A stretch of 64,000 bases of DNA from Craspedostauros australis (taxonomy: Eukaryota). Within the stretch, counting starts at the first letter, position 1. Each line of letters opens with the position of its first letter. The stretch covers positions 1-64,000 of the forward strand of contig JALAGF010001249.1 in assembly GCA_030167865.1 (NCBI GenBank). The letters run 5' to 3'. The notes beneath the pieces are model-generated. The model was not told the DNA's origin, ran no database searches, and saw only the letters and a list, made by a program, of their open reading frames with translations. The position numbers and the translations under genes are program-made. Below, piece by piece: positions 1-23,070 of the stretch.

Positions 1-803
1 TGGCACGATTGCTCGGGATTTAACCAAGGCAAACTTAGCGAGGGTCATTCTCGGAGTTTCTGCCCATGTGCCCCATAAATGAAAATGGCGTCTGTGACCG
101 GCAAAGAGTTCCCGAGAACACTAGTTTGAATCGAGAACTTTCTTCTCGGGAAAACAGTTGTCATCGCCAATACAGAAAGCTCTGATTGGCTGGGTCAGTC
201 ACATCGCATATTGACTAATTCGACCCATTTTGCCGGGTGTCCCAGGAAGATCCCTTTGCGGAAGCAATCATCTCGTGATGTGCCACCCGTCGTGAGCTGC
301 TGAGCAGCCGGTTACGATCAACGAAGAGCGCCGCATGTTGAAACCATCAGCGTCATCGATGCGTGCCAGCAGATCGCATTTGTATGTGTTTGGGGCAAGC
401 ATCATCTTCTTCGGGTTGCGCCAAACAGTGCAAATTAGAGTGAAGTATGGCATCGTAGTATATTATATTCTACACTGTTACTATCCTCGCATATTATAAT
501 ATTATACAATATCAGTACTGATGAGCATAATATGAACATCTTTCTATTCTGCATGGGTATTTGGAGTACTGTACTAGCTATGCTCTGTGCACATGCTATC
601 GCTTTGTCCATTTGATCTGATGCGCTGAGCGGCTATCACATGCGCTTTGTTGTGCCGTGCTGTGATGTGCTGTGCGAGTTTCGCTGGCACCTGGCCTCGT
701 CCAACTATGTTCATGTTGAAGGAACCACGGCCACTGCTCGCGTATCTTCTGCGCTCTGCTGCTATCGTGTGTATGTATGTATGGATGCATCGCCGTTTCT
801 GAC

Positions 804-2974
804 CTAGTAATCGTATGAATCCTTCATTTCGTAGTCTCTGCCGATCTGCTGGACGCTGGTCCTGGACTTATGGTTGGATCGTCTCTCCTGCAGGGCTTCG
901 TCCCACGACGCGTCTACAGGTTCGGATGACGTTCGCCCTTGCCTGTTGCCAAACACCATCGACGTGGCCGACCCGCTTCGCTCGCTGCTATCCAGTTTGT
1001 TCGTGGCGGTGCCGCGCTTGCTGTCGCTCGCGTCGTCGTCGCCGGCGGCGTCGTCATAAAAGGTGGTGGGTTGGTAGGCCGCTCGCAGCATGATCATGAG
1101 CATGCCGAAGAAGGAGATGAGGAGCAGGCTCGAGAATATCCATGACTCTGCCTGCATGGCAGATGTGCACGTGCCGTCGTGCATCACCTGCCGGTAGATG
1201 GGCACCAGGTTGTTGCAACCGATGAGGCCCACACCTTCCCACGCTTCCACGAGAAGTTCATCGATGAGCACGTTCATCGGCCGCAGCAGGTTCATTGGCG
1301 TGTTGAAGTCGACGCCGCAAACCTGCGAAATGACCTCGACGGTCTCATCCTCAATGTCTTTGATGAACAAATTCAGATTCTCCTTGGCAACAGCCTGCGG
1401 GTGTGATTGTGTGCATGTGCGTGTGGATAGGGATTTGTTCGTTGACGAAGCCACAGATGCAAGAGAAGACCAGATGAGTGTGAGTATGAGCACGTTGGAG
1501 AAATGCAAGGGATCAATCACACAGCAAATCAACATTGCGTCACGCACGCGCGTCAGGGGACAAATTGAGTCGAATAACACCATGCGTACTCACCAATTCG
1601 ACAATGTACTCATCCAAAAACTCCAGCGGATTCTCCGGACTCGTGCATTGGTCGACGTAAAAGGAAATGAACTCGTATTCAAAGGCCGCGTTGTCGAATT
1701 CCGATTGCGCGATGGCGCTGACGGTTGCTTCCGGCGTGTTGTCTTGACCGCCGGAACACGCATCGGCGTTGGCCTCGGCGATGAAGGAGGACGCGGCGCA
1801 TCCCACAATCGCCGCGAGTATGAGCAGAACGAAGAGCGGCAGGACGAGCCAATCGACCAGGCAGAAGAATTTGCGGTACGGAACCTCTTGGGGCGATTCG
1901 GGCGGCGTGGGCGAGGCGTCGATCTTCCAGCTGAGTCCCAGCGCGAGCAGCAGCGCCGATGTGATGATGACGAACGGAATGACGATGGCCGCCACCTGAA
2001 ACGTGGTCGGTCTGTCGCCCAGGAGAGTGTCGATGTCTTCCGAACCGTCCTGAATGTCATCGAGCACGGTGTCCAGCTCTTGCAGATCGGACTGAACGAA
2101 GTTCTCGAGCTGCTCGACGGCCGTCAAGGTGCTTTCGGATAAGCTGCGCAGAGTCGCCTCAAGGTCCGTGCCTGGGTTCGTGGGGCAGATATCCTGCTTG
2201 AGGAAGGTGGAGAGCTGGTCACGAAGATCGATGGCCTCGTTGGCATCCGTCTGCAGCTTGGTTGATATCTCCGCCAGCCTGCCGCTTATCGTGACCACAT
2301 GTTCGTTGGAATCGTGAAATACATCCGCCGCCTCTTCCAACTGCGTCGTGCCCTTTCCCACAAGGAGGCAGGCGAAGAGGATGACCATGATCGCGCTGCC
2401 GATGAATACGAATCTGACATATCTGACGAGAGCGCCAGCATCGTAGTATGAGAATGAAGACCCCGACATGAATCCCACCCGTCGCTTTCCTAGGCATTTG
2501 AGGATGAGGAGCATGAGGGCCCAAACTAAGAAGAGGCAGGCCATGATTGCGCCGACATAGAACAGCCCGCGGACGTAGGATTCCTTCTCCGTGTCAGAAC
2601 CACTGAATAGTATTGAGAATTCATCCGTACCGCTCGAACCTCGCGGCAATCCATGAAAGTTAGACACTACTCCGGGCTGCAATGCAGAGTTGCATTAGAT
2701 TGGGTTGGGTTGGGTTGGGTTGAGTGAGGCAGAGTGCAGCATGATATAATAGGTGGATGAATGAATGAATGAATGAATGAGTTTGGTATTCGTATGAGGC
2801 AGTGTGGGACGGTGCGAGATGATCACCAAAGAGAAAGCGCACCACAACGAGCGAGTTGATGATTTCATCTTCTCATGGGGACTTTCGTTGCCTTGAACTC
2901 ACCGCACTGTATGCTCCTCGGTAAATCTCGGGATCCCCGACGATGAATTCTCCGGTGCTGGTGTTGGTCGACAT
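804..2974 (-). CDS. Five-TM membrane protein, Tweety/prominin-like topology (~581 aa; exons 2974-2903, 2676-1594, 1394-804)
   Basis: Two phase-0 GTGAGT..CAG introns join MSTNTSTGEF..YSA|PGVVSNF..EYIVEL|AVAKE in frame. Five hydrophobic segments, two long helical loops, Cys motif ANADAC after TM4 and a disordered C-tail. Family is inferred from topology only. Confidence 0.7.
2700..2780. repeat. Intronic microsatellites (TTGGG)4 and (GAAT)6
   Basis: Visible at 2700-2722 and 2757-2780 inside intron 2677-2902. Confidence 0.9.
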
Positions 2975-4906
2975 CGTGGCTCTCTGCTTCTGGATGTGCT
3001 GCGTTTTGGATGTTTCGGTTCCTAGAAATGTGAGGGGCTTGAGAGTTGGTGGAGTACTCTTACTGCCGTCGCTTTCCCTGCTACTGCCACCGCTACTGCT
3101 ACTGCCACTGCTACTGCCACTGCCACTGCTCTATTGCTGTTTGTGAACGGATCAGCATCAATCTACATGCACTATGTGGATGACAGATGTTGTGCTAATA
3201 TGATGGCTGGTGGAGAGATGCTGGGAGCGGTGCTGTTGGCATTGATCGTCTGCCCAATGCTGGTGAGTGGTAAGAGCCGATGGGGGTGTGGTAGTCACTG
3301 CTGCAGTCGTGGAGGTATGTGATGTTCACGATGTCTTCGATCGTGATGATGTTGGTCGTGAGTACTGGGAGAGAATCGGCACGGTGTGGAACCATCCTCA
3401 CTTGGTGAAGTGATCATCCACGCCACTCTTCTTCCTCTCGATTCCTTTCCTCTTCTTTTCTCTCTTTCATTCAAAATTGCTGTCTCTGGTGCGTTGCGGT
3501 GGAGAGATGGCGACTTTCCCCTCTCTTGGCGCACGTCTACTTTCTCACTCCTGCTTGACAAATTTGTTGGTTGTTTCCATGTCGTTGCCTGACACAACGG
3601 AGAAACCTTAGCATTGGTTCCTTCTACCTCCACGGCGAAAAAACGCGTTGCATTGCTGTCACTCAGGCTAAGGACGAGGGCAATCGTATCAAATGTAACG
3701 GAAACCGTTCACTGCATGCCAATCAGGTCAAAAAAACAGTCACATTTTGTGATCCCAAATCACATCTCCGAACCGATCCCTGGTGCAGAACAGAGTCGTT
3801 GGCTGTGGCACCGCAATTCCTGTCTCACTGGTCGTCAGATGCTCTCTCTATCTCTCTCTCTCTCTGCACAAGCGGAGAGGCAACTATCATGAGAGAGTAG
3901 CACGCTGCCGCCAGACTGCATCTCCTCGCAATCCGTGAAATCAAATCGGATTGCAGCGGGAGCGTGGGAAAATCCAATCGTGTCAATTCAATCAGATCCA
4001 ATCCAAGTCGACTCCGTTCTCGTTGTGCTGTTTGGCCTGACAAGAGAATCCGTCTGTCTGAAGCCTTGGTTCGTGCTTTGGCAGGTATTCACAACTACCA
4101 CATCCACGCCTCAATGCTCTTGACAGAGTCTCAAACCACGCTCGAACTATACGACCAACCCGACATCATCCAAGATAAGTTTGTGTGTCCTTCCTTGTTT
4201 CGTTGGAAACTTATTTTGTGGCTGTTCACATCTGTCTGTTTGATAGAATGCGTCGGTTCACAATTTGAATCGTGACTGTTTGTATGTCTTCGTATCAACA
4301 GAACGGCATTGAAAGTTGCGGTAGTTGAATATTAATTGAATTTCAAATCCACAATTGATGCTTCGTCTGCATGTCTGTACGTGCCTGCACATGATGAATG
4401 ACGAATCACGCAAAAACCTCACTCCGTCTTCATGTTTGATTCGGACGACTAAAAACATGCCTCCACAATGGGACCATTGCGCACAAACGTGGACAACACG
4501 TTACTTGACTCAACGGTAAGCTTGGGTCGGAAGCCAGAGCGATGACAACATCCCGCCAAGTCGGAGATGGAGGGTGGTGTGCTCCAAGTCTCGTTGATGG
4601 TTGGACAGCACATCACCAACAGATCACTCGTAGCTTGTTCGACTGTTGCTCCACTGTTGCTCCATTGGTGCTCCACAGCATTTCGTCAATTGGATTGACT
4701 GCTTGATTTGGTCGATCGAGTGTCATGGAAAGCAAAGGAGAACGTTGGTTGCTGGAGACGAAGGAGGGAGAACGGTAGCATAACTTCGATCGGCTGCATT
4801 GGGCTTCAAGGAAAGTGAAGCAAAGACCCGACTTCCCCGAAGCATTTGCCGCCGACTGGGCAACATCGATCGGAGCACAAGGTGAAACGGAACGGAAGTG
4901 CGCGCC

Positions 4907-7425: not shown

Positions 7426-10043
7426 TCAGCCAACGGCTGCTTCCGATTCGAAGATCTCCCTTTGGTTCTCGTCCATCTGGTGCACCTGCTGCGGTGAGAT
7501 CGACCCGGCGGACACCATGGCGGCAAGGCTGACGGATAGGGCATTGGGTGGATCAGGAAGGTGCCCATCCGGTCTGCGATCCTTCGGCGGATCCAGCTCC
7601 GGCAGCCGTCCACCGACCGGCCAATACCTGTCCGCAACGTCAGACAGAAACTCGATCCAATCGCAGTACAGATTCTTGCGGATGTACTCCAACGGCGTCT
7701 GGCCGTGCTTGTCTTCGATGAAGAGCTGGATGGGATCGCGGTCCAGGATGGCCTCCGCGATGTACCGGCTGAACTCCGATGCCCATGCAGCATGATGCAG
7801 AGGTGTTCGGCCGAACCCATCCGTCACCTGCAATTCGCAATCGTGGTCGACGAGGCACTGGAAGACCGTCTCGTTCGCTCGTTTGCAGACCAGATCGACG
7901 ATGGAATCGCGGAACTGGTTGCATGGATTGGGACTGATCCCGCATTCGAGGAGTTCCGCGAGCGTGTCCGTGTCGGAGCTGTGCACGGCGCGGACCAGAT
8001 GAGTGCCGAAGGATGCCAACTGGAGGGCGGACGGTACAGTCTCGTATCCCGCCTGGTCGGACTTGATGCGATCGACGGGGTAGCCTCGCTGTTTCAAGAT
8101 GCTCAGGAGGACATCCTGCGGTGCAGCCGATGTGCTCATGATGGGCGTACGAGTCTTCTGCGTGACAGCGAACTTGGATTGCATCTTTCCAGCCCGGGCC
8201 CGGATCGGCCTTTCTTTGCTGTAGACACTCGCCAGTACAGATGGTGGGATCGAAGTGGAAGGCAGCATCATCAGCGCCTCGTGTTTCGGCATCTGCACTT
8301 GCTGTTGCTGCTGATGTTGCTGATGCTGCTGTTGGAGCTGCAGTTGCTGATTTTCCGGGAATGCATCAGGCACCGACCAGGGTGTCGGTGGTAGCATTGG
8401 CTGTTGCATCTGCGATGCCATCTGTTGGAGCTGCAGATCCTGAGGTTGTTGTTGTTGCTGTTGTTGCTGTTGTTGCTGTTGTTGAAGCTGCTGTTGTTGA
8501 AGCTGCTGTAGTTGCATTTGCTGTACGTTCGGCTGCTGAACTGGTGGTGGCTGTGATTGTTGTTGAAATTGCGCCTGGTTGTTGGACAGATCAAAGACGT
8601 TCTGTTGCGGCATCATTTGTGACAGCTGCAAGTTGTTGTTGTTGCTGTTCATGATGGATGGGTCGGTGGTCAAGCCGGCATGATTGGTGTTGGTGTTGCT
8701 GGCTTTGTTGATGTTCTGCTGAGCTGATTGTAGCTGCGACACTGTCTTGTTCACATTCAATCCTTGAGTGTGACTGTTGTTGCCGCTGCTGTGGCTGCTG
8801 GCGTTGGTGTACATGGACCTCTCGCTCTGACCCAGAGCTGATCCTTGCTGCACCTGTTGCTGCACCTGTTGCTGCACCTGTTGTTGCTGCACCTGTTGCT
8901 GCACCTGTTGTTGTTGTTGCACCTGCTGCTGTTGTGGAAACGGCGAGGAAAGTCGCTGCTGCTGCTGATTTGGTGCCGGGCTGGGACCTTGTTGATGAAT
9001 GGTTTGGGCAGCCTCGAGAGCTTGCTGCAGCATCGTGAAATGATCTTGCTGAGGAGCGTTGACTTGTGGCGGCAACGAGAAATTGTTGGAAGCCTGCCAG
9101 TTATCAGCGTCGACGCCCAACGAGAATTTGATTGGGCCATCCGCAATCTCCGGGTTGGGTTGGACGGACATGCCGCGTCCCAGCGGAGCCACCGTGGCAT
9201 CGAGGAAGAGACGGTTGGACGGGTATCCGGAGAGCTGATTGTTGTTGGTGGCAGTCTGAGGCGCTGCGGGGTTTGGGCTTTGCATCTGCATGTTGCCTTG
9301 GGTCGGTGGTGGTTGTCCACCCGGCGAGTACAGATCTTGCTGCTGCAACGGGTTGGGAGTAGGTGATTGCATTTGCTGGTGCTGCGTTTGCTGTTGCTGA
9401 AGCGGATTGGGAACGGGTGACCGCAACTGCTGTTGCTGTTGCTGCTGCTGTCCCATGCTGGATGAGGCATTGGAGATGGAATTGGCGCTTGATTCATTGG
9501 CAGTATCAGCGACGTTGACCGACGGAGGAACCGGATCTGTCGGTTGGGACGCGAGAGGATTGTAGCCAAGCATCTGCCCGTACTGCGAAAGGATGGAGTT
9601 CATGTTGTCGGAGTATGGCTTGTTGGGAGCAAAGTTGGGCATGGTGGTGTTGGACTGCGGCTGGACGATGGACTTTTGATTGGCAGAGAAGGTATGCTGC
9701 GGTGCCGATTGTTGCGTTTGCTGGTGCTGCTGTGGCTGTCCGAGCCCCGCGCTGAGCTGCAATCGATCCTCCTGCGCCTGCCTCTGCTGCAGGACAGAGA
9801 CGTTCTTCTGCATCTCAGCGATCGCAGCTTGCTGCTGACGTTGTTTGTTGTCGTATGCGGCGCCGTGAGTTTTGGAACGGGGTGTGGTGGGCCTCATGCT
9901 GAGCATGGATCCCATCGTTTGGGGCTGAACCGATGCCATGCCACCTTCACGTGTTCTGTTCAACATTCCCGTGTTGTTCGACTGCTGTTGCTGCGCCATT
10001 CCGCCAGTCCCGTTGTTGCTGTTGTTGTTGTTGTTGTTGTTGC

Positions 10044-10098
<55 letters not shown>

Positions 10099-10473
10099 GC
10101 TGTTGTTGCTGATGCCGGTGTTGCCACCGAGTTGGCTTGGCATGCCAGACATCGTGGATGAGGCTGGAAGCATCGAAGACCAAGGCTGCGAGCTGCTGTT
10201 GGTGGTTGCGACCGCGCTGCTTGCATTGAGAAATGACTGGTTTGACTGGTGCGCGAAGTGTTGCTGCTGTGGCATTGCGACATTCGATGTGTGGGATTGA
10301 TTGATCGATGATGGTTGGTGCAAGCTTTGGGATAAGGGATGCTGCTGATGCTGCTGTTGAAGGGAGTTCCAGAACGATGCATCCGGTACCGATCCCGCAT
10401 TCAGCGCAGCAGCAGCGGCGGCGGCTGCAGCTGCCGAGGATGCGGAGGCATTGTTGCTGGGTTGGTTCATCAT
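7426..10473 (-). CDS. Q/N-rich low-complexity protein with C-terminal ankyrin-repeat domain (1015 aa)
   Basis: Single long ORF with ankyrin motifs (GISPNPCNQFRDSIVDLVCK, DGFGRTPLHHAAW, DKHGQTPLEY) after about 750 aa of polyQ/polyN sequence. Confidence 0.88.
10012..10110. repeat. Coding (GTT/AAC)n repeat encoding poly-Asn
   Basis: About 33 trinucleotide units with a few GCT interruptions. Confidence 0.95.
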
Positions 10474-12941: not shown

Positions 12942-14822
12942 CTACGACCGCAGCGGCGCTCCTTCGGTGGTGACGTAATGGTACGCCGCTTCGAGGCCGA
13001 TGCAGGTGATGCCCATGCGCTCAAAGAACTCCTGAACACGCTGCAAATCGCGGCGCAGCCATTTCTCGGCGTTGGGGTGCTTGTGATTGACGGCCTGTCC
13101 AAAGTCGATCAGCGCGACCTGCAGGGCTTCCTTGTCGTCGGGGTCGTCGAACATGAGCTTGCTGGGACACACGAGGATGTTGTACTCGCTGAGATCGCCG
13201 TGCACGAGATGCGCCTTGGTGTAGAGCAACTGCACGGCCTCCATGGTCTGTTCGTAAAGCGAGGTCCACTTCTTGCTGCCCTTCTTGATGTCGATCTCGC
13301 GCAACTGCGGCGACGGCCAACCTTCTTCGCCCAAAAAGCGCATGAAGAGGACGTTGTCGTTGTACGAGAGAGGCTTCGGTACCGGCACGCCGCTGCGCTC
13401 CGCACGGATCAGATTGCGATACTCCTTCTCCGTCCACATGCCGAGCTGCTCCCGCGGACCCGCCTTGCTGAAATTCTTGCGCGTAAAGCGCGTGTCGCCC
13501 GTGACGTAGTCTCCACGATTGCGGAACTCCTGGATGCGCTTGAAGACCTTGATGGCCACGTCGTGACCGCCACTTTCCGTGCCTTGCAGGGCGTGGTACA
13601 CCATGGCCTCCTTGCCTTCCTTGACGGTGCCGTTGAACTTCTCGATGAGGCCGTTGTTGATGGCCTTCGTGATCTCCAATCGCGTCGTGCCGTCCAGCGC
13701 GCCCTCTCTGGTTCGTTCGGCGTCCGTGTTGGCACGGCCGTGGCCATGGGCGGCGACGCCCTTGACCGTGCGCTTCTTGAAGGCGGAGCGGAAGGAATTG
13801 AATGCCTTGTTGCCGACGTGGATGGGACCGTCCTCGAAGTCGAGCTGCATGCGATGGGCGTTGGCCTGCGCCTGAAGGCGAGGATCGTGCTTGGTGCGAA
13901 TCTCCTTGTTGGGACCCATGATGGCGTCGCTGTCGACCCTGGCCCATTGCGATGCTTTCGATGAATTGATTCGGAACCCCGCTTCCTCCGGAAGGAATGC
14001 GCCGTCATCATCATAAGGGTCCAGATCGGATTGCGCAGGCGGCGGCTGGACGGCTCCTCCCTCCTGCTCCTTGAGGTACTCTGCACGCGTCATGGTTCGG
14101 ACGTGGCCCTGCTTGAGCTGGGTGCTGCCGACCGAAACGTGCTTGGCCGCCGATGGTTTGCTGTTCTCCTGATCCTGCAGATGCAATGCCAGCTGAAAGG
14201 ATTCTGCCAATTCGCGCGCCTCCGCCTCCTTCAAGGCCTTCTGAATCAGTTCCATCTCGGCCTCGGAGATGGCGTCGTTGGCATCGGCTGATGGTGCCAC
14301 TGCTGCTGCTGGAACTGCCGCTGAACTCGCTTCCTGCTCCAACGACAATCGAATCGCCCTCTGGATTTCATCTTCCTCCGACGATGCTGTGGTTGACACA
14401 TCCTGCGACACAGGCTGCTCCATCAGAGAAGCCTCCATGGCCGCCTTGAGGACGGCATCATCTTGTTGGATGAGCTTGTTGGCGTGCGATATCTCCGCCT
14501 CCTCTGCCATGATGGAGAGTAGGCTGGCCTTCTTCTGACCGCCGTTGTTCTGCTTTGCTTGGGCAGGCTGTGCAGCAGTAACAGTAGTAGTAGTAGTAGA
14601 GGTAGGAATGCCAGCCGGCTTGCCCCATGCCATCTTGATGGGTGCTGCTCTGGTGATGACCGTCGGTTCCATGTTGCTGTTTGCTTTTTCTTGAGTTGTT
14701 GTTGTAGTTGTTGTTGCTGTGGCTTCCGTCGAAGATTGTGATGCGGATGGTATCATTGCTTGCGATTCTTCTTTGCTTGGTTTATGATCAGATGCTGCGT
14801 TGCTGTCCTTGTCGGTCGTCAT
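12942..14822 (-). CDS. RIO-family atypical Ser/Thr kinase, RIO1/RIO3 type with RIOK3-like N-terminal extension (626 aa)
   Basis: Motifs GKEAMVYHA, AIKVFK, WTEKEYRNL, VLFMRFLG..GWPSPQL, LVHGDLSEYNIL, LIDFGQAV..HPNA. Upstream TKHD motif and UIM-like helices. Confidence 0.92.
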   Translation of the reverse strand: MTTDKDSNAASDHKPSKEESQAMIPSASQSSTEATATTTTTTTQEKANSNMEPTVITRAAPIKMAWGKPAGIPTSTTTTTVTAAQPAQAKQNNGGQKKASLLSIMAEEAEISHANKLIQQDDAVLKAAMEASLMEQPVSQDVSTTASSEEDEIQRAIRLSLEQEASSAAVPAAAVAPSADANDAISEAEMELIQKALKEAEARELAESFQLALHLQDQENSKPSAAKHVSVGSTQLKQGHVRTMTRAEYLKEQEGGAVQPPPAQSDLDPYDDDGAFLPEEAGFRINSSKASQWARVDSDAIMGPNKEIRTKHDPRLQAQANAHRMQLDFEDGPIHVGNKAFNSFRSAFKKRTVKGVAAHGHGRANTDAERTREGALDGTTRLEITKAINNGLIEKFNGTVKEGKEAMVYHALQGTESGGHDVAIKVFKRIQEFRNRGDYVTGDTRFTRKNFSKAGPREQLGMWTEKEYRNLIRAERSGVPVPKPLSYNDNVLFMRFLGEEGWPSPQLREIDIKKGSKKWTSLYEQTMEAVQLLYTKAHLVHGDLSEYNILVCPSKLMFDDPDDKEALQVALIDFGQAVNHKHPNAEKWLRRDLQRVQEFFERMGITCIGLEAAYHYVTTEGAPLRS

Positions 14823-14935: not shown

Positions 14936-15466
14936 GCTATGGTACACGCACTCGCATGTACTATACGTAGTCGTACCAACAGATCGCAGTCGTGCACAAA
15001 CTGACGAACACAGTCGAAGATGGCGGATGCCGGAAGAGGTCGGACCTGTTGTTGTTGTTGTTGTTGTTGTGTCAGCTGCGTACGACTACAACTACAACTG
15101 CTCATACGATCCACCACACGAGTGCAACACAACATGAACACAGCACAAGGACGTGCAAATCGAATGGATGGCAACAACATCAGCCCCCCTTGGATTCGAT
15201 GCCGTTCCAACCAAGACCAACACGCTCGTTTGCCAAACGTGGAATAACACGATTGGAACAGATCACTATGACTACTTGGAATCATCCTTCACAAGACTCA
15301 AGACAAGTGCATCCACGAGTGACGAAGTTGGAAGATCCAGTCACAAATGTGCACGCGCCCTTGATGAGTCCATGTGCTACTACGCACGTAGTAGTACGAC
15401 CAACAATGATCATGATGGATCTTCACCTCCCGATCATCACACTCTCATACTCAGCCATGCCACTGA

Positions 15467-15510
15467 CTGCACATTGACTGGCTGCACACTGACCGACTGC
15501 ACAGTTGACC
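15467..15510 (+). repeat. Three imperfect 15-bp direct repeats (CTGCACA..TGAC) abutting the ATG at 15511
   Basis: CTGCACA occurs at 15467, 15482 and 15497 (exact 15-nt period), each followed by TGAC. Confidence 0.75.
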
Positions 15511-17397
15511 ATGACAGAACAGGCTGCGACGATCATCATCACCGGCGGCGGTGGATTCCTGGGACAATGCCTGGCATGCGAGCTGCTGAAGACGAAGACG
15601 GCAAAGTACCAATCTCAGGATGTCTCCATCGCGAAGATCATCCTGGCGGACATCGCATTCCCACCCACGTTGGCCGCTGCGATTGAGGAAGCCACCGCCA
15701 TCGTGGAGAAGGTCCCGGGCGACGTCTCCTCGCGATCCTTCTGCGACAGCCTCTATGCGAAGATCGACCACGCCGCCACCACGCACGTCTCCGTCTTCCA
15801 TCTGGGCGCGGTCATGAGCGGCGACGGCGAGCGCGACTTCGATCTCTGCATGAACGTCAACCTGCACGGCTTCCTCAACATGATCGAAGCCGCGCGTCGC
15901 AACGTCCACGACAAACACGGCTACGCCCCCAAGTTCCTCTTCGCCTCGGCCGGCGCCATCATCGGATCGGGCGCCGCCACGGATTACATCACGAAGGACG
16001 ACACCATCTGCGATGCCACGCGCGCGACGCCGCACACGACCTACGGCGCCACGAAGGCCTGCTGCGAATTGCTCCTGTCGGATTACGCGCGCCGCGGATT
16101 CGTCAATGGACGCGCGCTGCGGTTGCCCACGATCGCCGTCAGGGCCGGCAAGCCCAACGCGGCGACGACGTCCTGCTTTTCGGCCGTCGTGCGCGAGCCG
16201 TTGGCCGGTGTCGATGTGGCGCTGCCCATCGCGGCGCACGTGCTGCATGCCATCACGAGCAAGCGCGCGGCCATCGCGGGGATGATCATGCTGCACGATG
16301 CGACGAAGGAGGTCGTGCAGGATGTGTTGGGATACGATCGCACCGTGTTTTTGCCGGCCAAGGCGCTGTCGCTCGACGATCTGCATCAGGCGCTGCTGAA
16401 GGTCGTGGCACCGGATAGTCAGGACAAGCTGGGCAAGATCACGTACGACGTCGATCAGCGGTTGAGCGATATCGTCTCCAGCTTTCCGACCAAGATCGAT
16501 GCTGCACGCGCGCACAAGATCGGGATTCCGCCGTCGCCCTCGGCCGAGACCATCGTGAGGGAGTACATGGAGGACTTCTCGTCGGCCGTGGTGGATGACA
16601 TTGCATCAACGGATGTTTCGGCCGCAACGTCAGCGCTGCACAGCAAGGAAGGCCTCAAGGTCGCGGTCGTCACGGGTGGTGGATCCGGAATCGGCAGAGG
16701 CGTCGCGCAACGACTGGCACGCGGTGGCTGGACCATCGTGCTGGCGGGACGACGCATGAACACCCTCAAGGAAACCGAGGTGTCGTTGGATGGTTCGGAT
16801 CATCTGTGCGTGCGCACCGATGTGTCGGTGGAGAGCGAAGTGCGACAGCTCTTTGACATGGTGCGTTCCACGTACGGACGCCTCGACGTCCTGTTCAACA
16901 ACGCCGGCATCAACTGCCCGGCCGCCTCCATCGAGGACATCACGGCCAAGGACTTTGAATCCGTCTTCCAGGTCAACGTCACGGGCCCCTTCCTCTGCGC
17001 CAAGCACGCCATCCAGCTCATGAAGGAGAACGGCGGCGGCCGCATCATCAATAACGGCAGCATCTCCGCGCACGTGCCGCGTCCCGGTTCCGCCCCGTAC
17101 ACGGCCGCCAAGCACGCCGTCCTGGGCCTGACCAAATGCATCGCCTTGGACGGCCGCGCCTGCAACGTGGCGTGCGGTCAGATCGATTTTGGCAACGTCG
17201 TCAGCGCCTTGAGCATGGCCACGAACAAGGTCGGCAGCGGGGCCATGCAGGCCAACGGCACGCAGATGGTCGAGCCCACCATGTCGATGGAAGATGCGGC
17301 GGAGACGCTGTGGACCATGGTCAATCTGCCGCTGACGGCCAACGTCCTCCAGATGACCGTCATGGCGACGCAAATGCCATTTGTTGGGCGTGGTTAA
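15511..17397 (+). CDS. Two-domain SDR fusion: extended SDR (D-erythronate dehydrogenase DenD-like) + classical SDR (628 aa, intronless)
   Basis: N-domain: TGGGGFLG, LADI, HLGAVMSGDGERDFDL, YGATK, LRLPTIAVRAGKPNAATTSCFSAVVREPLAG. C-domain from ~16654: TGGGSGIG, AGRR, NNAG, INNGSISAHVPRP, YTAAK, ending MATQMPFVGRG. Confidence 0.9.
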   Translation: MTEQAATIIITGGGGFLGQCLACELLKTKTAKYQSQDVSIAKIILADIAFPPTLAAAIEEATAIVEKVPGDVSSRSFCDSLYAKIDHAATTHVSVFHLGAVMSGDGERDFDLCMNVNLHGFLNMIEAARRNVHDKHGYAPKFLFASAGAIIGSGAATDYITKDDTICDATRATPHTTYGATKACCELLLSDYARRGFVNGRALRLPTIAVRAGKPNAATTSCFSAVVREPLAGVDVALPIAAHVLHAITSKRAAIAGMIMLHDATKEVVQDVLGYDRTVFLPAKALSLDDLHQALLKVVAPDSQDKLGKITYDVDQRLSDIVSSFPTKIDAARAHKIGIPPSPSAETIVREYMEDFSSAVVDDIASTDVSAATSALHSKEGLKVAVVTGGGSGIGRGVAQRLARGGWTIVLAGRRMNTLKETEVSLDGSDHLCVRTDVSVESEVRQLFDMVRSTYGRLDVLFNNAGINCPAASIEDITAKDFESVFQVNVTGPFLCAKHAIQLMKENGGGRIINNGSISAHVPRPGSAPYTAAKHAVLGLTKCIALDGRACNVACGQIDFGNVVSALSMATNKVGSGAMQANGTQMVEPTMSMEDAAETLWTMVNLPLTANVLQMTVMATQMPFVGRG

Positions 17398-17585: not shown

Positions 17586-18503
17586 CTACTTGCAGCCATC
17601 CCTACACCATGGGCATGCATCGGTGGTCCCATTCTCATGACACACGCAGCAACACCCCAACGACTGCGCCTCCGTCCACCCTGCATCCTCCACGATCATT
17701 TCCAGTTGTGGCACAACATCGTCGTCATCGCAGTTGCCGTTGCTGTTGCCGTTCGTTACGTTGCCATCCACAGCTGCCACATCATTGCTCGTCTTATCGG
17801 ACACCGCCGCCGCATCGACGCGATATTGCGCAACATCCACCACCGCCCCATCTTCGCAACACTGCAACAACCACGCGACATCGACCAACGCAATCTTGCG
17901 CTTGACGGCCTTGCGCACACGCTGCGTGGCATGGTGGATCGCCGAGGGCGTGCAGACGACGTAGCGCACTCTCTTGTGCACCTGCGTCGTGACGGTCGCG
18001 CCCAGATTCTGCGCTAGGTCGCGCACGGTCTTGTAAGAATGCTCGTGCGTTTTGCCGCGCTCTTCCAACGTCGATATGGAGAGGATCATGCCGTGCAAGG
18101 GTGGTTTGGATGGTGATTGCTGGTGTGGCTTCTTCTTCTTCTTTCGTTTCTTGGGAGGCGCCTTTGATGGGGCGTCGTTTGGCTTGCCGCTTGGTTCATC
18201 TGCGGCAGCTGGTCGTGGTGGTGATGATGATGATGATGATGATACAGCAACACCGGTCTGATCTGCTGCCATCATCCCCGTTGCTTCCAAAGATGGTTCA
18301 TCATAAGAGCACTCATGCGACTCCGCATCGCGATCATTCTGCAGTTGATGCTCATGCTGTGCTTTCACTGATCGTTTCTGCTTGGAACTGCCACTCGTGG
18401 CACGATCGCCATGCTTCTCTTCTTTCCGTTTCTTCTTGGATGCCTTCTTCGCCTTCCTTGCGACCTTCTTGTCATGCTTGGCATCGCTCTTGACCTTCGC
18501 CAT
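17586..18503 (-). CDS. Small BRCT-domain protein with Lys-rich N-terminus and Cys-rich C-terminus (305 aa)
   Basis: BRCT-like pattern LHGMILSIS..LGATVTTQVHKRVRYVVC..KAVKRKIALVDVAWLLQC. NLS-like PPKKRKKKKK. Terminal CCCVCH..CPWC..C. Confidence 0.8.
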   Translation of the reverse strand: MAKVKSDAKHDKKVARKAKKASKKKRKEEKHGDRATSGSSKQKRSVKAQHEHQLQNDRDAESHECSYDEPSLEATGMMAADQTGVAVSSSSSSSPPRPAAADEPSGKPNDAPSKAPPKKRKKKKKPHQQSPSKPPLHGMILSISTLEERGKTHEHSYKTVRDLAQNLGATVTTQVHKRVRYVVCTPSAIHHATQRVRKAVKRKIALVDVAWLLQCCEDGAVVDVAQYRVDAAAVSDKTSNDVAAVDGNVTNGNSNGNCDDDDVVPQLEMIVEDAGWTEAQSLGCCCVCHENGTTDACPWCRDGCK

Positions 18504-18897
18504 GGCTTTCTATCCGTCCCGTATTCCCAATTCCCTCTCCTGGCCGTTCCTCATTTGATGAGAACATGTGTTGTGGTTGGTGACCGGATTCGTTTCCAAA
18601 ATCATGAAATCGTGAGAAAACACGTTCATCCGTTGTGGTGGGAGTTGAAGTACTCTACGAAGGACAGACGCGCAGACCGATTCAATGAGGATTTGGCGCC
18701 ATCTTCAATCACGATCGTCAATCACGAGCGAAGAAAAACGCTCATCGAAATGACCATAACGAACCTCGTTCCACGCTGGACGCCGTTGTGCCTCTGTGCA
18801 GGAACTCGCTGTGCCATGTGTACTATTATAATATAATATTATAATACAACCAAGGAGCAACGCTTGTTGGAATCTGCAGTGTCGTGGGAAGGTGCGG

Positions 18898-20529
18898 ATG
18901 GTTGCCACAGCAGCCGCAATTGATGCCATGACAGCGAAAAGCAAGAGCACGCGCAGGAAGACGAAGGAACGGAATGTCCTGCGCCTCATCGGAATCTTCG
19001 TGCTGTTTCAGTTCCTTCTGATGTGCCATCTGGTGCTGCGATTGGATCAGCATGCAACGGCGTCCGCGCAAGCTTCCGTGAAGAAGGAACGCAAGTTGAG
19101 CGATGCCAATGCGCCGGGTCTGTCGCGGCCGCCCAAGCCGCTGCATCCGATCGAGCAGCCGGTGTCGGCCACCGCGTCTGTGCAGGGTCAGTCTCAAGAT
19201 CATAGTCAGGATGGCAACAAAGAACAAGAGAAGAAGGAAGAGGACAAGGAAAAGGAAGAGGACAAAGAAGAGGACAAGGAAAAGGAAAAGGAACGCTCTG
19301 ATGATCAGAAGCAGCCTCCGCCACAACCCGCATCCCAGACGAAGACAAAACCCAAGCAAGGCAGGATAGAACGCGCTCCTCCAGACTTGCTCAGAAAGCT
19401 GATGGACGATTCCAAGGACGGCAGCTGTCCTCAACGACCGGAAGGTGGACCCCATATCCTCGCTTTCATCATACCGTTCCGCGATGCCTCGGTCGATCTG
19501 CGCAGCCAGGGTCTGGGACGAGAGCAGAACCTGCAGCAGTGGCTCCAGTACATGCGCAACACCTTGCCGCTCTCCATCGTGCAGTCCTCCCACGTCTTCA
19601 TAGTGGAGCAGACGCAAGGCGACGTCTTCAACAAGGGCCTCCTCTTCAACGCGGGATACGACTTCGTCTTTGAGAAGCACCACCCGTGCCTCTTCGATTA
19701 CATGGTCCTGCATGATGTGGATCAGATACCGACCGAAGCGACGGCGAGATTCGCCTACGACTTTCGTCCCGTGCCCACCAAACTCATCGCGCAGACGACG
19801 CGCAAGAAGAACGCCGACGCGCCGGAGGAATCGCGCAAGCTCTTCACCTCCAACGTCGGCGGGGCCCTCATGATGCAGCCCGAGACGTACCGACGCGTCA
19901 ACGGATTCTCAAACGCCTTCCAGGGTTGGGGCGGAGAGGATGAGAACATGGCCGTGCGCATCCGCTCGTACAATAAGAAGAAGCACGCGACGATCGCGAA
20001 TGGCATGTTCCGCGAGCTATACCACACGCGCGTCGAAGGGTTGGATGGTGGCAAGTACTACCTCTCCAACAAGGCCCGCACGCGCAGGGATCTCAAGACG
20101 GGGCTCGTGGATCTCACCTACCAGCTGCAGCAGCAGAATCAGTTCGATGTGCAGGGTTGGCCCGTCACGCGTCTTCTCGTCGATCCGCCCAAGATCAAGC
20201 TGGCGGATCCGGCGCAGGTCAAGGTCGCGCAAGTGGAAGCTGCGAAGCAGGCCGCCATGAACAATCGTGTTGCTGCGGGGCGGCGCAGACCGGATATGGT
20301 CATTGCGACGCAACAACAAAAGCAGCACAAGCAGCAGCAGCAGGAAGCAAGAGAACAACAAGCAAGGGAAATCTTGCAACAAGTAGAAGAGCAGCAACAG
20401 GCACGACTGGTGCAGGAACTAGCAGACGCCGATCCCAAGAATCGCCCGTTGCGTGCGGTGGCGATGTTGGAGAAGGGGTTGATGAAGAAGGGATTGCATC
20501 TGCGAGATGTTCATCATGAAGAGTGGTAG
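18898..20529 (+). CDS. Glycosyltransferase family 7 (beta-1,4-galactosyltransferase-like), type II membrane protein
   Basis: Motifs IIPFRD, FNKGLLFNAG, LHDVD (DxD), GGAL, VNGFSNAFQGWGGEDE. Basic N-tail, one TM and a charged stem. Start could be the ATG at 18928. Confidence 0.9.
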   Translation: MVATAAAIDAMTAKSKSTRRKTKERNVLRLIGIFVLFQFLLMCHLVLRLDQHATASAQASVKKERKLSDANAPGLSRPPKPLHPIEQPVSATASVQGQSQDHSQDGNKEQEKKEEDKEKEEDKEEDKEKEKERSDDQKQPPPQPASQTKTKPKQGRIERAPPDLLRKLMDDSKDGSCPQRPEGGPHILAFIIPFRDASVDLRSQGLGREQNLQQWLQYMRNTLPLSIVQSSHVFIVEQTQGDVFNKGLLFNAGYDFVFEKHHPCLFDYMVLHDVDQIPTEATARFAYDFRPVPTKLIAQTTRKKNADAPEESRKLFTSNVGGALMMQPETYRRVNGFSNAFQGWGGEDENMAVRIRSYNKKKHATIANGMFRELYHTRVEGLDGGKYYLSNKARTRRDLKTGLVDLTYQLQQQNQFDVQGWPVTRLLVDPPKIKLADPAQVKVAQVEAAKQAAMNNRVAAGRRRPDMVIATQQQKQHKQQQQEAREQQAREILQQVEEQQQARLVQELADADPKNRPLRAVAMLEKGLMKKGLHLRDVHHEEW

Positions 20530-20874: not shown

Positions 20875-23070
20875 TCACTCATCCATGGACTCCAGCACAC
20901 CGAGAGCCTCCTGGACATCGAGATCATCCGACACGCGAAACAGCCACGACAGAATATCCGTCGGATCCGACAGCGTCCCCACCTCCTCCCCGAAGGCCCC
21001 GAGCTGATCGTACAACGCCGTCGGCGCGTACTTATCGTCATCTGGCGCGTAGTACGCAATCATGGGAAAGTAGGGCACGTCGACCATATCCTCGCGCATG
21101 GCGGACGTGCCATCCATCTTCCAGACCTCGATCCAGCGTTGCCATCCGAGATACTGCAACAGCTCTGCCAGTTCGTTCCACACGACGGACAGACGCTTGG
21201 AATGGCCGCACGTGGGGGATGTGATCAATGCGAGGACATGCGCCGTCCGACGTTGCGTGGGGAAGGCATTCTGCAGGACGGTGACGCCGTATTCGTTCGT
21301 CGTGGATTGGGCAGGACCGGCGGAAGGCTGCGCCAACGTGCCGCTCCAGAACTGTTGAAAGAAGGCGGCGACATGCGCAGTGCTGAAGTCGTGGTCGAGA
21401 CGATAGCGTCGCAGTTGATTCGTCTGGCGGCGATCGATGATTTGCAGGACGGGCAGGATGGACGGCGGCACCATGTCCTCATCATCATCATCCATGTGAG
21501 AAGTTGCCGCATCTCGCGCCTTGTTGGAACACGCCCATTCATCGATGGGGGACCAGATATCGACATCGAAGGACTTGAGCATGCGCGTATCGGTCGAGGG
21601 CACGACGAGACACACCGCGCCTCGTTGGTGCTGACAGGCATGCCGCAGCGCCTGGATGGCATGACGCGAATCCGATATGGCATCGCGGTTGTGAAAGTCT
21701 ACGAAGAGGACGGCGTGGACCTTGACGCGATCGCGCATGGCGATGGGCGCCGTGCTTTGTCGATCGAGCCACATGACGGATGGCGTGAGGGCGGACAGCA
21801 TGAAGTCGTGCATGCTGGACATGGCGTTGGTTGTGTCAGCGTCGTGACTGGCGGGTGGTTGCCACGTGGACTGCCACTCAAGTCGCTGCGTTTCATCGTT
21901 CACAAGGTATAACCTCAATGTCTTGTCATCATGGCTGTCGCTGTTTTGAGAAACATCATCATTGTTGTCAGCAGGAGCGCAGTTGTAGAGCAAGCCCGTC
22001 AACAGCCTCTGCGTTTGCGACAGGATGGCCGCGAGCTGATCGAATTCGGAGTATTCCGATGGATACGTCGCGCCATGCGATTCGCGACATTGAACGATGA
22101 CGTAGTTGGGATCCTTCGTGGTGGATGCAGCAGTCTGATGATGCGCGTAGGTATCATGATCGCCCATGAGATATCGAATCGCGTCGATCTCCTCTTGTGA
22201 ATAGTGCGGATTGTACGCGATGGGCGTGTTGCGAAACAGGATGCTGCTTTGCGCATCAAAGTGATAGAGCTGCACGTAGCGTCGCAGCTGATGTTCGGAG
22301 TGGAACTGCACCGGAAATGGCACCAAGGTATGTTGCTGCACGTAATCGTACTGCGATGGAGACAGACGCAGCATGCTGTGCAGCAATCCATCCTGCAGCG
22401 CTTGCATGGGACCGGCGTAGTCCGTGATGTTGCTGTTGGCCGAGTCGGTATCGTGGACGCGCACCATCAAGATGGCGGGAACGGCATTGATGCCGAGGCT
22501 TTCTGTGAAGTGGGTGCGCGACGGCATGGTTGCCAGATCGACTTCGAGGAACCATGGGTAGTTGAGGATGTAGTGCCGGTTGGGGAAGTCCTGCATACCA
22601 TTGTCTGCGTTTGCACTCACCGCATGATCGGCCCGAAAGCGAGACACGACGTCGTGGATGGACGCAACCGCCTGCTTCCACCGTCCCAGCATCGCCTGAC
22701 AGGGCTTGCAGGACGGATCATGCACCAGCACCGCGATGAGGTTGGAATGCGAGGGCGACTGCGCAACGCTGACCCGCTCCACGAAGCGCTTCAGATCATC
22801 GAGAGACGAGACGCTGTACGTGCCATCGTGGTTGACGCGCGGTGCTTGCAGATCGTCTTCGCCTGCAGAGTCGGCCTGCTGCTGTTCTTGAGCGGCATCC
22901 GCTGACACAACCGGCAGCAGCAGGAGCGGCAGCAGCAATACCAACAGCAAGAGAAGTGGGGAAGATCGCCTTCGGCTGCCTTTGCGCCATCGCGAGGCTG
23001 CAGTCGCCCTTGATGTTGCGATGAACGGCTCTGTCATGTCGGTCGACTCTGCTGCGTGCTGCAACAACAT
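20875..23070 (-). CDS. Secretory-pathway multi-thioredoxin-fold (PDI-like) protein (~731 aa)
   Basis: Leu-rich signal/anchor ending VSA. First Trx-like domain has CKPC and GINAVPAI; last has CGHS and VPYFPMI. Non-catalytic middle region. Confidence 0.72.
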   Translation of the reverse strand: MLLQHAAESTDMTEPFIATSRATAASRWRKGSRRRSSPLLLLLVLLLPLLLLPVVSADAAQEQQQADSAGEDDLQAPRVNHDGTYSVSSLDDLKRFVERVSVAQSPSHSNLIAVLVHDPSCKPCQAMLGRWKQAVASIHDVVSRFRADHAVSANADNGMQDFPNRHYILNYPWFLEVDLATMPSRTHFTESLGINAVPAILMVRVHDTDSANSNITDYAGPMQALQDGLLHSMLRLSPSQYDYVQQHTLVPFPVQFHSEHQLRRYVQLYHFDAQSSILFRNTPIAYNPHYSQEEIDAIRYLMGDHDTYAHHQTAASTTKDPNYVIVQCRESHGATYPSEYSEFDQLAAILSQTQRLLTGLLYNCAPADNNDDVSQNSDSHDDKTLRLYLVNDETQRLEWQSTWQPPASHDADTTNAMSSMHDFMLSALTPSVMWLDRQSTAPIAMRDRVKVHAVLFVDFHNRDAISDSRHAIQALRHACQHQRGAVCLVVPSTDTRMLKSFDVDIWSPIDEWACSNKARDAATSHMDDDDEDMVPPSILPVLQIIDRRQTNQLRRYRLDHDFSTAHVAAFFQQFWSGTLAQPSAGPAQSTTNEYGVTVLQNAFPTQRRTAHVLALITSPTCGHSKRLSVVWNELAELLQYLGWQRWIEVWKMDGTSAMREDMVDVPYFPMIAYYAPDDDKYAPTALYDQLGAFGEEVGTLSDPTDILSWLFRVSDDLDVQEALGVLESMDE

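Follow-up and report, generated by a model that had tools for sequence, protein, structure and literature searches.

The DNA examined here is a window of 64,000 nucleotides from Craspedostauros australis (positions 1 to 64,000, forward strand, of contig JALAGF010001249.1 in assembly GCA_030167865.1), and its feature of interest is a gene at window positions 15511-17397 (+) encoding two fused short-chain dehydrogenases/reductases (SDRs). The gene is a single open reading frame (ORF) of 628 codons, which ends in TAA and contains no internal stop; the assembly letters of the window are free of N. Pfam analysis places Epimerase at residues 8-233 and adh_short at residues 383-572. Domain 1 (aa 7-355; 15529-16575, +) is an extended SDR derived from the D-erythronate dehydrogenase DenD, and domain 2 (aa 383-628; 16657-17394, +) is a classical SDR of the L-threonate 3-dehydrogenase (Ltn3D) subfamily. 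An earlier note on this DNA, made from the letters alone, had described a 628-residue two-SDR ORF and named its motifs; the frame is open, the motifs are present and they recur family-wide, confirming that the ORF is real.

For comparison a family set of 214 proteins (query included) was collected, in which a fusion was defined by coverage of at least 90% of each domain. Both domains occur in 139 of these proteins and 116, again counting the query, are full-length fusions. The halves are joined by a variable linker (aa 356-382; 16576-16656, +), which has a median length of 27 residues among the 116 fusions (range 23-56) and is poorly conserved: conservation of at least 90% is reached by two of its 27 columns, compared with 113 of the 349 columns of domain 1 and 94 of the 246 of domain 2. 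AlphaFold2 modeling of the fusion (mean predicted local distance difference test score 91.4; predicted template modeling score, pTM, 0.79) reveals two confidently folded halves, the linker being the lowest-confidence block within the interior of the model. Chance read-through or misassembly is ruled out by the same domain order in 116 of the 214 proteins and by the near-equal GC content at third codon positions (GC3) of the two halves (0.85 vs 0.83); the linker stop against which the earlier note had cautioned is not present in the assembled frame.

A search of the genome with the fusion returned one full match, the other 33 matches being distant and limited to domain 2; the best of these reaches 32%, so that neither half is close to the other SDRs of the genome. 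The base composition of the gene is continuous with that of the window. Its GC3 is 0.84, versus 0.64-0.73 in the five neighboring ORFs checked, and may be a sign of high expression. At least 15 extra N-terminal residues are found in only eight of the 116 fusions and none on the window protein, and because it lacks such an extension the protein is probably cytosolic. The one RNA run examined gave no coverage over the linker. In relatives, expression as one chain is supported, since several full-length fusions are proteins from transcriptomes.

Domain 1 matches the DenD model NF043036 from end to end (E 1e-73), in keeping with the DenD-like character assigned to it earlier. Its score of 248 bits lies below the curated cutoff of 325, the comparable values being 362 for rhizobial DenD, 371 for Anderseniella DenD and 255-297 for other eukaryotic members. 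The best match in the PDB is 2hrz (E 7e-42), followed by threonine 3-dehydrogenases (E 1e-10), and Foldseek gives template modeling (TM) scores of 0.87 to 2hrz and 0.85-0.87 to SDR-type L-threonine 3-dehydrogenases. The domain carries the motifs TGGGGFLG, Asp47 within LADI, and Y178xxxK182. The NAD-type nucleotide site, consisting of GGGGFLG (aa 12-18) and Asp47, lies at 15544-15651 (+); Asp47 is found in all 116 fusions and in all 79 bacterial DenD relatives of the alignment, from which an 80th locus was left out.

The active site of domain 1 departs from that of its bacterial relatives. The SDR catalytic Ser/Thr is replaced by Ala147 (15949-15951, +), which stands opposite Ser124 of E. coli GalE in both hmmalign and MAFFT alignments. 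Of the 116 fusions, 111 have Ala here, whereas 78 of the 79 bacterial relatives have Ser; fusions of the Noctiluca type retain Ser or Thr. The Ser-Tyr-Lys triad is hence incomplete, a substitution missed in the earlier note, which had described two complete Rossmann/YxxxK domains. A clade-specific His175 stands ahead of the catalytic Tyr178-x-x-x-Lys182 (together 16033-16056, +); H175 occurs in 111 fusions, Y178 and K182 in 115 each, and His is outside the five commonest residues at position 175 in the 79 bacterial rows. Gly148 beside Ala147, along with His175 and Cys222, is fixed in the main clade. A putative acid-binding loop, R211-N216-T219-T220-C222 (16141-16176, +), has R211, N216 and T220 in 116 of 116 fusions; R211 and N216 are common to DenD, and T-T-x-C is peculiar to the eukaryotic clade, the 79 bacterial rows having A219 (76), S220 (78) and F or W at 222 (79). 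In all, the clade-wide departures from bacterial DenD are A147, G99, M102, H175, T219, T220, C222 and F325, and the DenD residues retained are Asp47, S103, Y178, K182, R211 and N216. Judged by its residues, domain 1 is a DenD scaffold of NAD type with a rebuilt active site.

By every sequence test domain 2 is a member of the Ltn3D subfamily, which gives a name to the bacterial SDR group in which it had been placed earlier. Its motifs are TGGGSGIG, AGRR at 412-415, Y530xxxK534 and a C-terminal MPFVGRG. Among its three best PDB matches is 9X6I (E 7e-71), described in PMC12994016 as Ltn3D of Paracoccus litorisediminis; the other two, 4dyv and 4dry, score similarly, and the next match (2e-32) is some 40 orders of magnitude weaker. 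Foldseek comparison with Ltn3D yields TM scores of 0.93-0.94 at 47-48% identity. Arg414-Arg415 (16750-16755, +) align with Arg33-Arg34 of Ltn3D, the NADP 2'-phosphate site for which the same paper gives mutant data; R414 is present in 116 of 116 fusions and R415 in 89. The opposite cofactor signatures proposed in the earlier note are consequently borne out, with Asp47 (NAD-type) in one half and R414-R415 (NADP-type) in the other. Ltn3D numbering was mapped by hand on the alignment, with an offset of 11 for the tag. Residues S517, S519, R524, Y530, K534, N562, E588 and M622 (17059-17376, +) correspond to Ltn3D S136, S138, R143, Y149, K153, N181, E204 and M238 and are each found in all 116 fusions, as is N489, the counterpart of N106 in the N106-S136-Y149-K153 tetrad. 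With R33 and R34, 11 of the 12 mapped Ltn3D residues are therefore kept, ten of them invariant in the 116 fusions; the lone exception is M186, which is Leu567 here. Among the mutants reported in PMC12994016, M186A is near wild type and R143A, Y149A, N181A and E204A are inactive. The enzyme prefers NADP+, oxidizes C3 in C2(R),C3(S) acids and works in the oxidative direction in Paracoccus (PMC12994016).

The fusion is old and widespread and not peculiar to the Craspedostauros australis genome. A whole-protein search gave 349 matches; among the 120 listed, the named carriers include Fragilaria, Cylindrotheca, Corethron, Odontella, Thalassiosira, Cyclotella, Conticribra and Pelagophyceae CCMP2097. 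Further carriers are Ditylum and the dinoflagellate Noctiluca, while Florenciella is our reading of an abbreviated carrier name. Haptophyte entries are partial or possess domain 1 only (Emiliania models), while in Durusdinium domain 1 stands alone. Literature searches, with most subscription journals outside their scope, returned no paper describing the fusion and none on tetronate enzymes in diatoms.

Around the gene, Pfam analysis identified a RIO1 kinase (12942-14822, -), a BRCT protein (17586-18503, -), a GT7 glycosyltransferase (18892-20529, +), a thioredoxin-like protein (20875-23070, -) and a Q/N-rich ankyrin protein (7426-10473, -), none with a metabolic tie to the fusion. Bacterial contamination is ruled out by these eukaryotic flanking genes and by diatoms being the nearest named relatives. 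A 111-base stretch of the form GT...CAG, containing CTGAC repeats, occupies window positions 15394-15504 and ends six bases ahead of the ATG; this is possibly an intron of the 5' untranslated region, an upstream coding exon not being evident.

Both halves are, by their sequences, of bacterial type, and rhizobia are not their nearest relatives. A tblastn search of plasmids matched 391 records, and among 60 evenly spread rows checked both halves lie side by side in 22, all rhizobial. In Rhizobium sp. Pop5 the gene order is ltnD, otnK, otnC, TIM barrel, denD, SDR, ABC transporter, with denD overlapping the start of the SDR gene; in general the rhizobial pair is overlapping or one base apart. The denD-SDR order of these rhizobial tetronate operons is the domain order of the fusion, so that the bacterial adjacency with otn genes that the earlier note had proposed to check does exist, in the same order and together with otnK. 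For its further suggestion, that horizontally acquired neighbors had been fused, no donor operon was identified: among the 80 GTDB loci most similar to domain 1 only one has the partner gene adjacent, in reverse order, and rhizobia are not sister to the fusion. A domain 2-type gene occurs somewhere in the genome in 24 of the 49 genomes holding those loci (the 80-locus count and a raw tally of 25 of 50 include the unpublished genome G034, which the 49-genome counts exclude).

Phylogenetic analysis with FastTree places eukaryotic domain 1 in a clade of its own, apart from all bacteria (63 rows, support 99). In the domain 2 tree, from which two very long outgroup branches were removed and in which 17 bacterial rows were thinned, a single clade holds 21 of the 26 fused rows, the other five falling among bacteria; one clade for all of them is not rejected (approximately unbiased test, p-AU 0.62). 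A recent transfer from rhizobia is out, given the separate eukaryotic domain 1 clade and a domain 2 placed apart from the rhizobial pair. A candidate natural bacterial fusion on a plasmid of Rhizobium gallicum M101 (L123:5767-7536), where denD and an Ltn3D-like gene read as one 589-residue frame, was likewise rejected: a single base within a G run separates it from two conspecific records, and it is seen in one of seven near records and is probably a sequencing error. In an Acidimicrobiales sugar-acid cluster (L081:1899-12395) an Ltn3D-like gene stands immediately ahead of denD, accompanied by ORFs which by eye resemble lactonase, dehydratase and aldehyde dehydrogenase genes.

Domain 1 has also been joined to a second kind of partner. 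A profile search listed 150 representatives, and 13 long proteins (12 of those listed plus P0174) were scanned. In seven of them (P0174, P0491, P0495, P0503, P0510, P0517 and P0523, one from a transcriptome) a domain 1 relative is fused to a beta-hydroxyacid dehydrogenase (PF03446; PF14833 in two). Six of the seven show an NRT motif after strand 2, which we take to be an NADP-type cofactor signature, and these fusions retain Ser or Thr at position 147. A beta-hydroxyacid dehydrogenase gene also lies beside denD in 13 of the 49 bacterial genomes (one a partial match without a visible motif), these being loci of Verrucomicrobia and Planctomycetes in which the neighbor is tartronate-semialdehyde-reductase-like (L022-L024, L027-L029, L031-L034, L038, L039, L041). 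The single neighbor gene scanned was nearest to tartronate semialdehyde reductase, which acts on a 2-hydroxy-3-oxo acid, although below the cutoff. Those 13 genomes have OtnK, OtnI and Ltn3D in none and Dak1 in nine. A beta-hydroxyacid dehydrogenase tree (25 rows, without reference reductases) indicates no more than that the partners, both fused and verrucomicrobial, are distinct from LtnD. In addition, P0516 and P0639 (Tripos fusus cluster) combine a domain 1 relative with about 200 C-terminal residues that have no Pfam match at E 1e-5.

The earlier note had expected otn partner genes in this genome; in the draft assembly of 6734 contigs OtnK, OtnI and OtnC were not found, every family search having matched control genomes. 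For OtnK there were no candidates in PF07005 or PF17042. The sole PF01261 match, and so the nearest approach to OtnI in the draft, is a xylose-isomerase-like TIM barrel protein (L130:1156-2316; TIGR02631 E 6e-24, far under cutoff). LtnD gave nothing above cutoff in the draft, and the sole match there to the class II aldolase family PF00596, searched for OtnC, is MtnB beside MtnC. The two genes, mtnB and mtnC (enolase-phosphatase), belong to methionine salvage; they are arranged head to tail at L121:249-2391 and are possibly one spliced fusion gene. Because OtnK, OtnI, LtnD and OtnC were not found in the draft, a 2-oxo product would have no known exit. The genome does possess an ATP-dependent glycerone (dihydroxyacetone) kinase, scoring 589.7 against the TIGR02361 cutoff of 574.95. 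This kinase (L011:781-2772) carries a leader of 70 residues in which an ASAF motif was recognized by eye and at the end of which stands a second Met, features that suggest plastid or dual targeting. A galactonolactone-dehydrogenase-like gene is present as three pieces, each below cutoff, and all genome matches to FGGY pentulose kinase fall below cutoff, leaving a candidate exit for C5 and C6 ketoses unsupported.

The question to be answered is how the two halves could work together. L-Threonate (2R,3S) and D-erythronate (2R,3R) are C3 epimers. In the literature (PMC12994016, PMC13753588), DenD oxidizes C2 and Ltn3D oxidizes C3; canonical halves consequently share no intermediate, and the channeled epimerase that the earlier note assembled from them does not hold unless the regiochemistry of domain 1 has changed. 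Were domain 1 to act at C3, both halves would meet at one 3-oxo acid. That no isomerase or kinase was found in the draft, that the active site has been remodeled and that C3-type partners recur leads us to infer that such a shift may have occurred.

The explanation we favor, at a probability of roughly 40%, is a two-headed aldonic-acid dehydrogenase, both halves of which would feed one 3-oxo acid whose decarboxylation to a ketose would constitute an Otn-free salvage. By analogy with Ltn3D biochemistry, domain 2 would oxidize C3 of (2R,3S) acids with a preference for NADP+, its candidate substrates being L-threonate and also D-gluconate, L-arabinonate, D-xylonate and D-galactonate. Domain 1 would oxidize the C3 epimers, (2R,3R) acids such as D-erythronate, with NAD+ to the same (2R)-3-oxo acid, a product differing from the 2-oxo acid of bacterial DenD. 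The 3-oxo acid would then lose CO2 to give a ketose (dihydroxyacetone from C4 acids), and dihydroxyacetone would be converted to dihydroxyacetone phosphate by the ATP-dependent kinase of the genome. Likely sources of the acids would be the breakdown of ascorbate (L-threonate) and GAPDH, of which D-erythronate is a side product. This salvage is ranked first because its sink is present and because it fits both the ancestral catabolic operon and the plant enzyme LTD; we also count in its favor that the closest solved relatives of domain 1 after DenD are C3-oxidizing threonine dehydrogenases, and that a comparable gene profile is seen in the 13 bacterial genomes in which denD adjoins a beta-hydroxyacid dehydrogenase gene (no OtnK, OtnI or Ltn3D; Dak1 in nine).

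Several points weigh against it. The absences of partner genes, coming from a draft of 6734 contigs, are unproven. Dak1 also accompanies OtnK in eight of the 20 genomes that have the latter, and the set of 13 with a beta-hydroxyacid dehydrogenase neighbor consists of related Verrucomicrobia and Planctomycetes, mostly incomplete, that count as one observation, which makes this pattern a weak one. The leader of the dihydroxyacetone kinase looks plastid-targeting and the fusion has no leader. Cytosolic NADPH/NADP+ ratios favor reduction by domain 2. Only traces of dihydroxyacetone were inferred in the Ltn3D reaction according to PMC12994016, and the ApnO paper (PMC13753588) describes 3-oxo-L-threonate as not readily decarboxylating. 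Finally, domain 1 may be a poor dehydrogenase, by analogy, since in other SDRs the corresponding Ser-to-Ala change lowers kcat by a factor of 200 to 3000 (PMC2279256) and costs Ltn3D about 1300-fold (PMC12994016).

The same chemistry would serve a single-chain C3 epimerase, from which the salvage differs in the direction of domain 2 alone: domain 1 would oxidize a (2R,3R) acid with NAD+ and domain 2 would use NADPH to reduce the 3-oxo acid, giving the (2R,3S) epimer. D-erythronate, for instance, would yield L-threonate, D-ribonate would yield D-xylonate and D-gulonate would yield D-galactonate. Opposite cofactor sites maintained across the family would suit such an enzyme, as would the repeated joining of an NAD-type domain 1 to an NADP-type partner, be it Ltn3D or a beta-hydroxyacid dehydrogenase (typed, in the latter case, by the presumed meaning of NRT), except that an NADP-type partner is equally explained by NADP+-linked oxidative decarboxylation. 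The kinase and isomerase not found in the draft are consistent with epimerization; fusion would shield an unstable intermediate, and the pTM of 0.79 suggests, on modeling grounds, a defined arrangement of the domains. The bacterial gene pair belongs, however, to catabolic operons, a sink for the L-threonate produced was not found in the draft (LtnD search), and the same unproven shift from C2 to C3 is needed. On balance we consider epimerization rather unlikely. A D-erythronate 3-dehydrogenase is called hypothetical in PMC12994016. It is doubtful, yet conceivable, that domain 1 is that very enzyme, a serine-free rebuilt descendant of a C2-acting DenD, with the fusion acting in major groups of marine phytoplankton as a single-chain NAD+/NADPH C3 epimerase of free sugar acids or as a kinase-free funnel, and the swap of partners marking an undescribed tetronate route independent of OtnI and OtnK that is shared with Verrucomicrobia.

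If domain 1 is not a net dehydrogenase at all, it could hold NAD structurally and decarboxylate or isomerize the 3-oxo acid that domain 2 makes, taking the place of OtnK/OtnC or OtnI. Ala147-Gly148 and the new His175 and Cys222, fixed in the main clade, would fit this, and unaided decarboxylation of the 3-oxo acid seems slow (PMC12994016 and PMC13753588). Bordetella WbmF, which has Ala at the triad position, offers a precedent in that a non-redox action on a keto intermediate was proposed for it, but that role is a proposal from structure (PMC2279256). Asp47, Tyr178 and Lys182 are nevertheless invariant or nearly so, and within the same clade position 147 is still Ser or Thr in the Noctiluca-type fusions and in those with a beta-hydroxyacid dehydrogenase, which makes a non-redox domain 1 improbable. 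We judge it very unlikely that the halves are independent dehydrogenases of bacterial regiochemistry (D-erythronate at C2, L-threonate at C3), fused as mere neighbors with no shared intermediate. The overlapping or nearly touching rhizobial genes, which a one-base difference fuses in one record, show how little such a fusion would take, and the eukaryotic clade does include domain 1 proteins that stand alone (Durusdinium, Emiliania models); but OtnI and a 2-oxo-tetronate kinase to receive the 2-oxo product were not found in the draft, and domain 1 falls under the DenD cutoff and differs at A147, M102, G99, T219, T220, C222 and F325. Least probable of the readings weighed is that the substrates are not aldonic acids but algal analogues such as C3 sulfonates. 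Domain 1 is remodeled and the taxonomic spread overlaps that of known sulfonate producers, yet domain 2 retains every essential substrate residue of Ltn3D and no sulfonate enzyme is the best match of either half.

The interpretation in the earlier note is, then, partly supported. Our literature searches found no route for the disposal of ascorbate-derived L-threonate and of D-erythronate in diatoms or related phytoplankton; for this task the fusion is a single intron-free candidate, and it is conserved in diatoms as well as in other algae. It extends to eukaryotes the Ltn3D type of enzyme, which was described from bacteria in 2026, and reveals a natural SDR clade that lacks the catalytic serine while keeping the NAD binding site, tyrosine and lysine.

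Among known systems, Ltn3D of Paracoccus litorisediminis (GL300_RS07945; PDB 9X6I/9XAX) resembles domain 2 in the Arg-Arg site, the N-S-Y-K tetrad, R143, N181, E204 and M238 (PMC12994016). Domain 2 differs in being the C-terminal half of a eukaryotic fusion, in having Leu for M186 and in coming from a draft genome in which OtnK and OtnC were not found; the main text of that paper makes no mention of eukaryotes, algae, diatoms or fusions. DenD (NF043036; nearest structure PDB 2hrz) has the NAD-type Asp, YxxxK, S103, R211 and N216 in common with domain 1, from which it is set apart by the cutoff, by Ser in place of Ala, by the clade-specific M102, H175, T219, T220, C222 and F325, and by its otnI and otnK companions, not found in the draft. 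The same holds for the bacterial four-step tetronate pathway (ltnD/denD-otnI-otnK-otnC), of which OtnI, OtnK and OtnC were not found there. Two-enzyme epimerizations by way of a keto intermediate, which pair an NAD-type with an NADP(H)-type enzyme, are exemplified by the 7-alpha/7-beta hydroxysteroid dehydrogenases, HpsO/HpsP and the plant two-SDR fusion RHM; these act on other substrates, and no sequence kinship to the fusion was seen.

Land plants use LTD for L-threonate: according to a preprint (bioRxiv 10.1101/2025.05.18.654769), Arabidopsis LTD (AT1G18270) is required for L-threonate turnover. Like the algal fusion, LTD joins tetronate enzymes of bacterial type in one eukaryotic multi-domain protein, but it consists of LtnD, kinase and aldolase-like domains and has no SDR; LTD-type kinase domains were not found in the draft genome. 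The next-closest fold to domain 1 after DenD is that of the SDR-type L-threonine 3-dehydrogenases (PDB 3a1n, 3a9w and others), which share about 21% identity with it and differ in possessing the catalytic Thr and lacking equivalents of R211 and N216. The Thr178-Thr179 pair of these enzymes aligns with T219-T220 of domain 1, and their reaction is the oxidation of C3 in a four-carbon acid.

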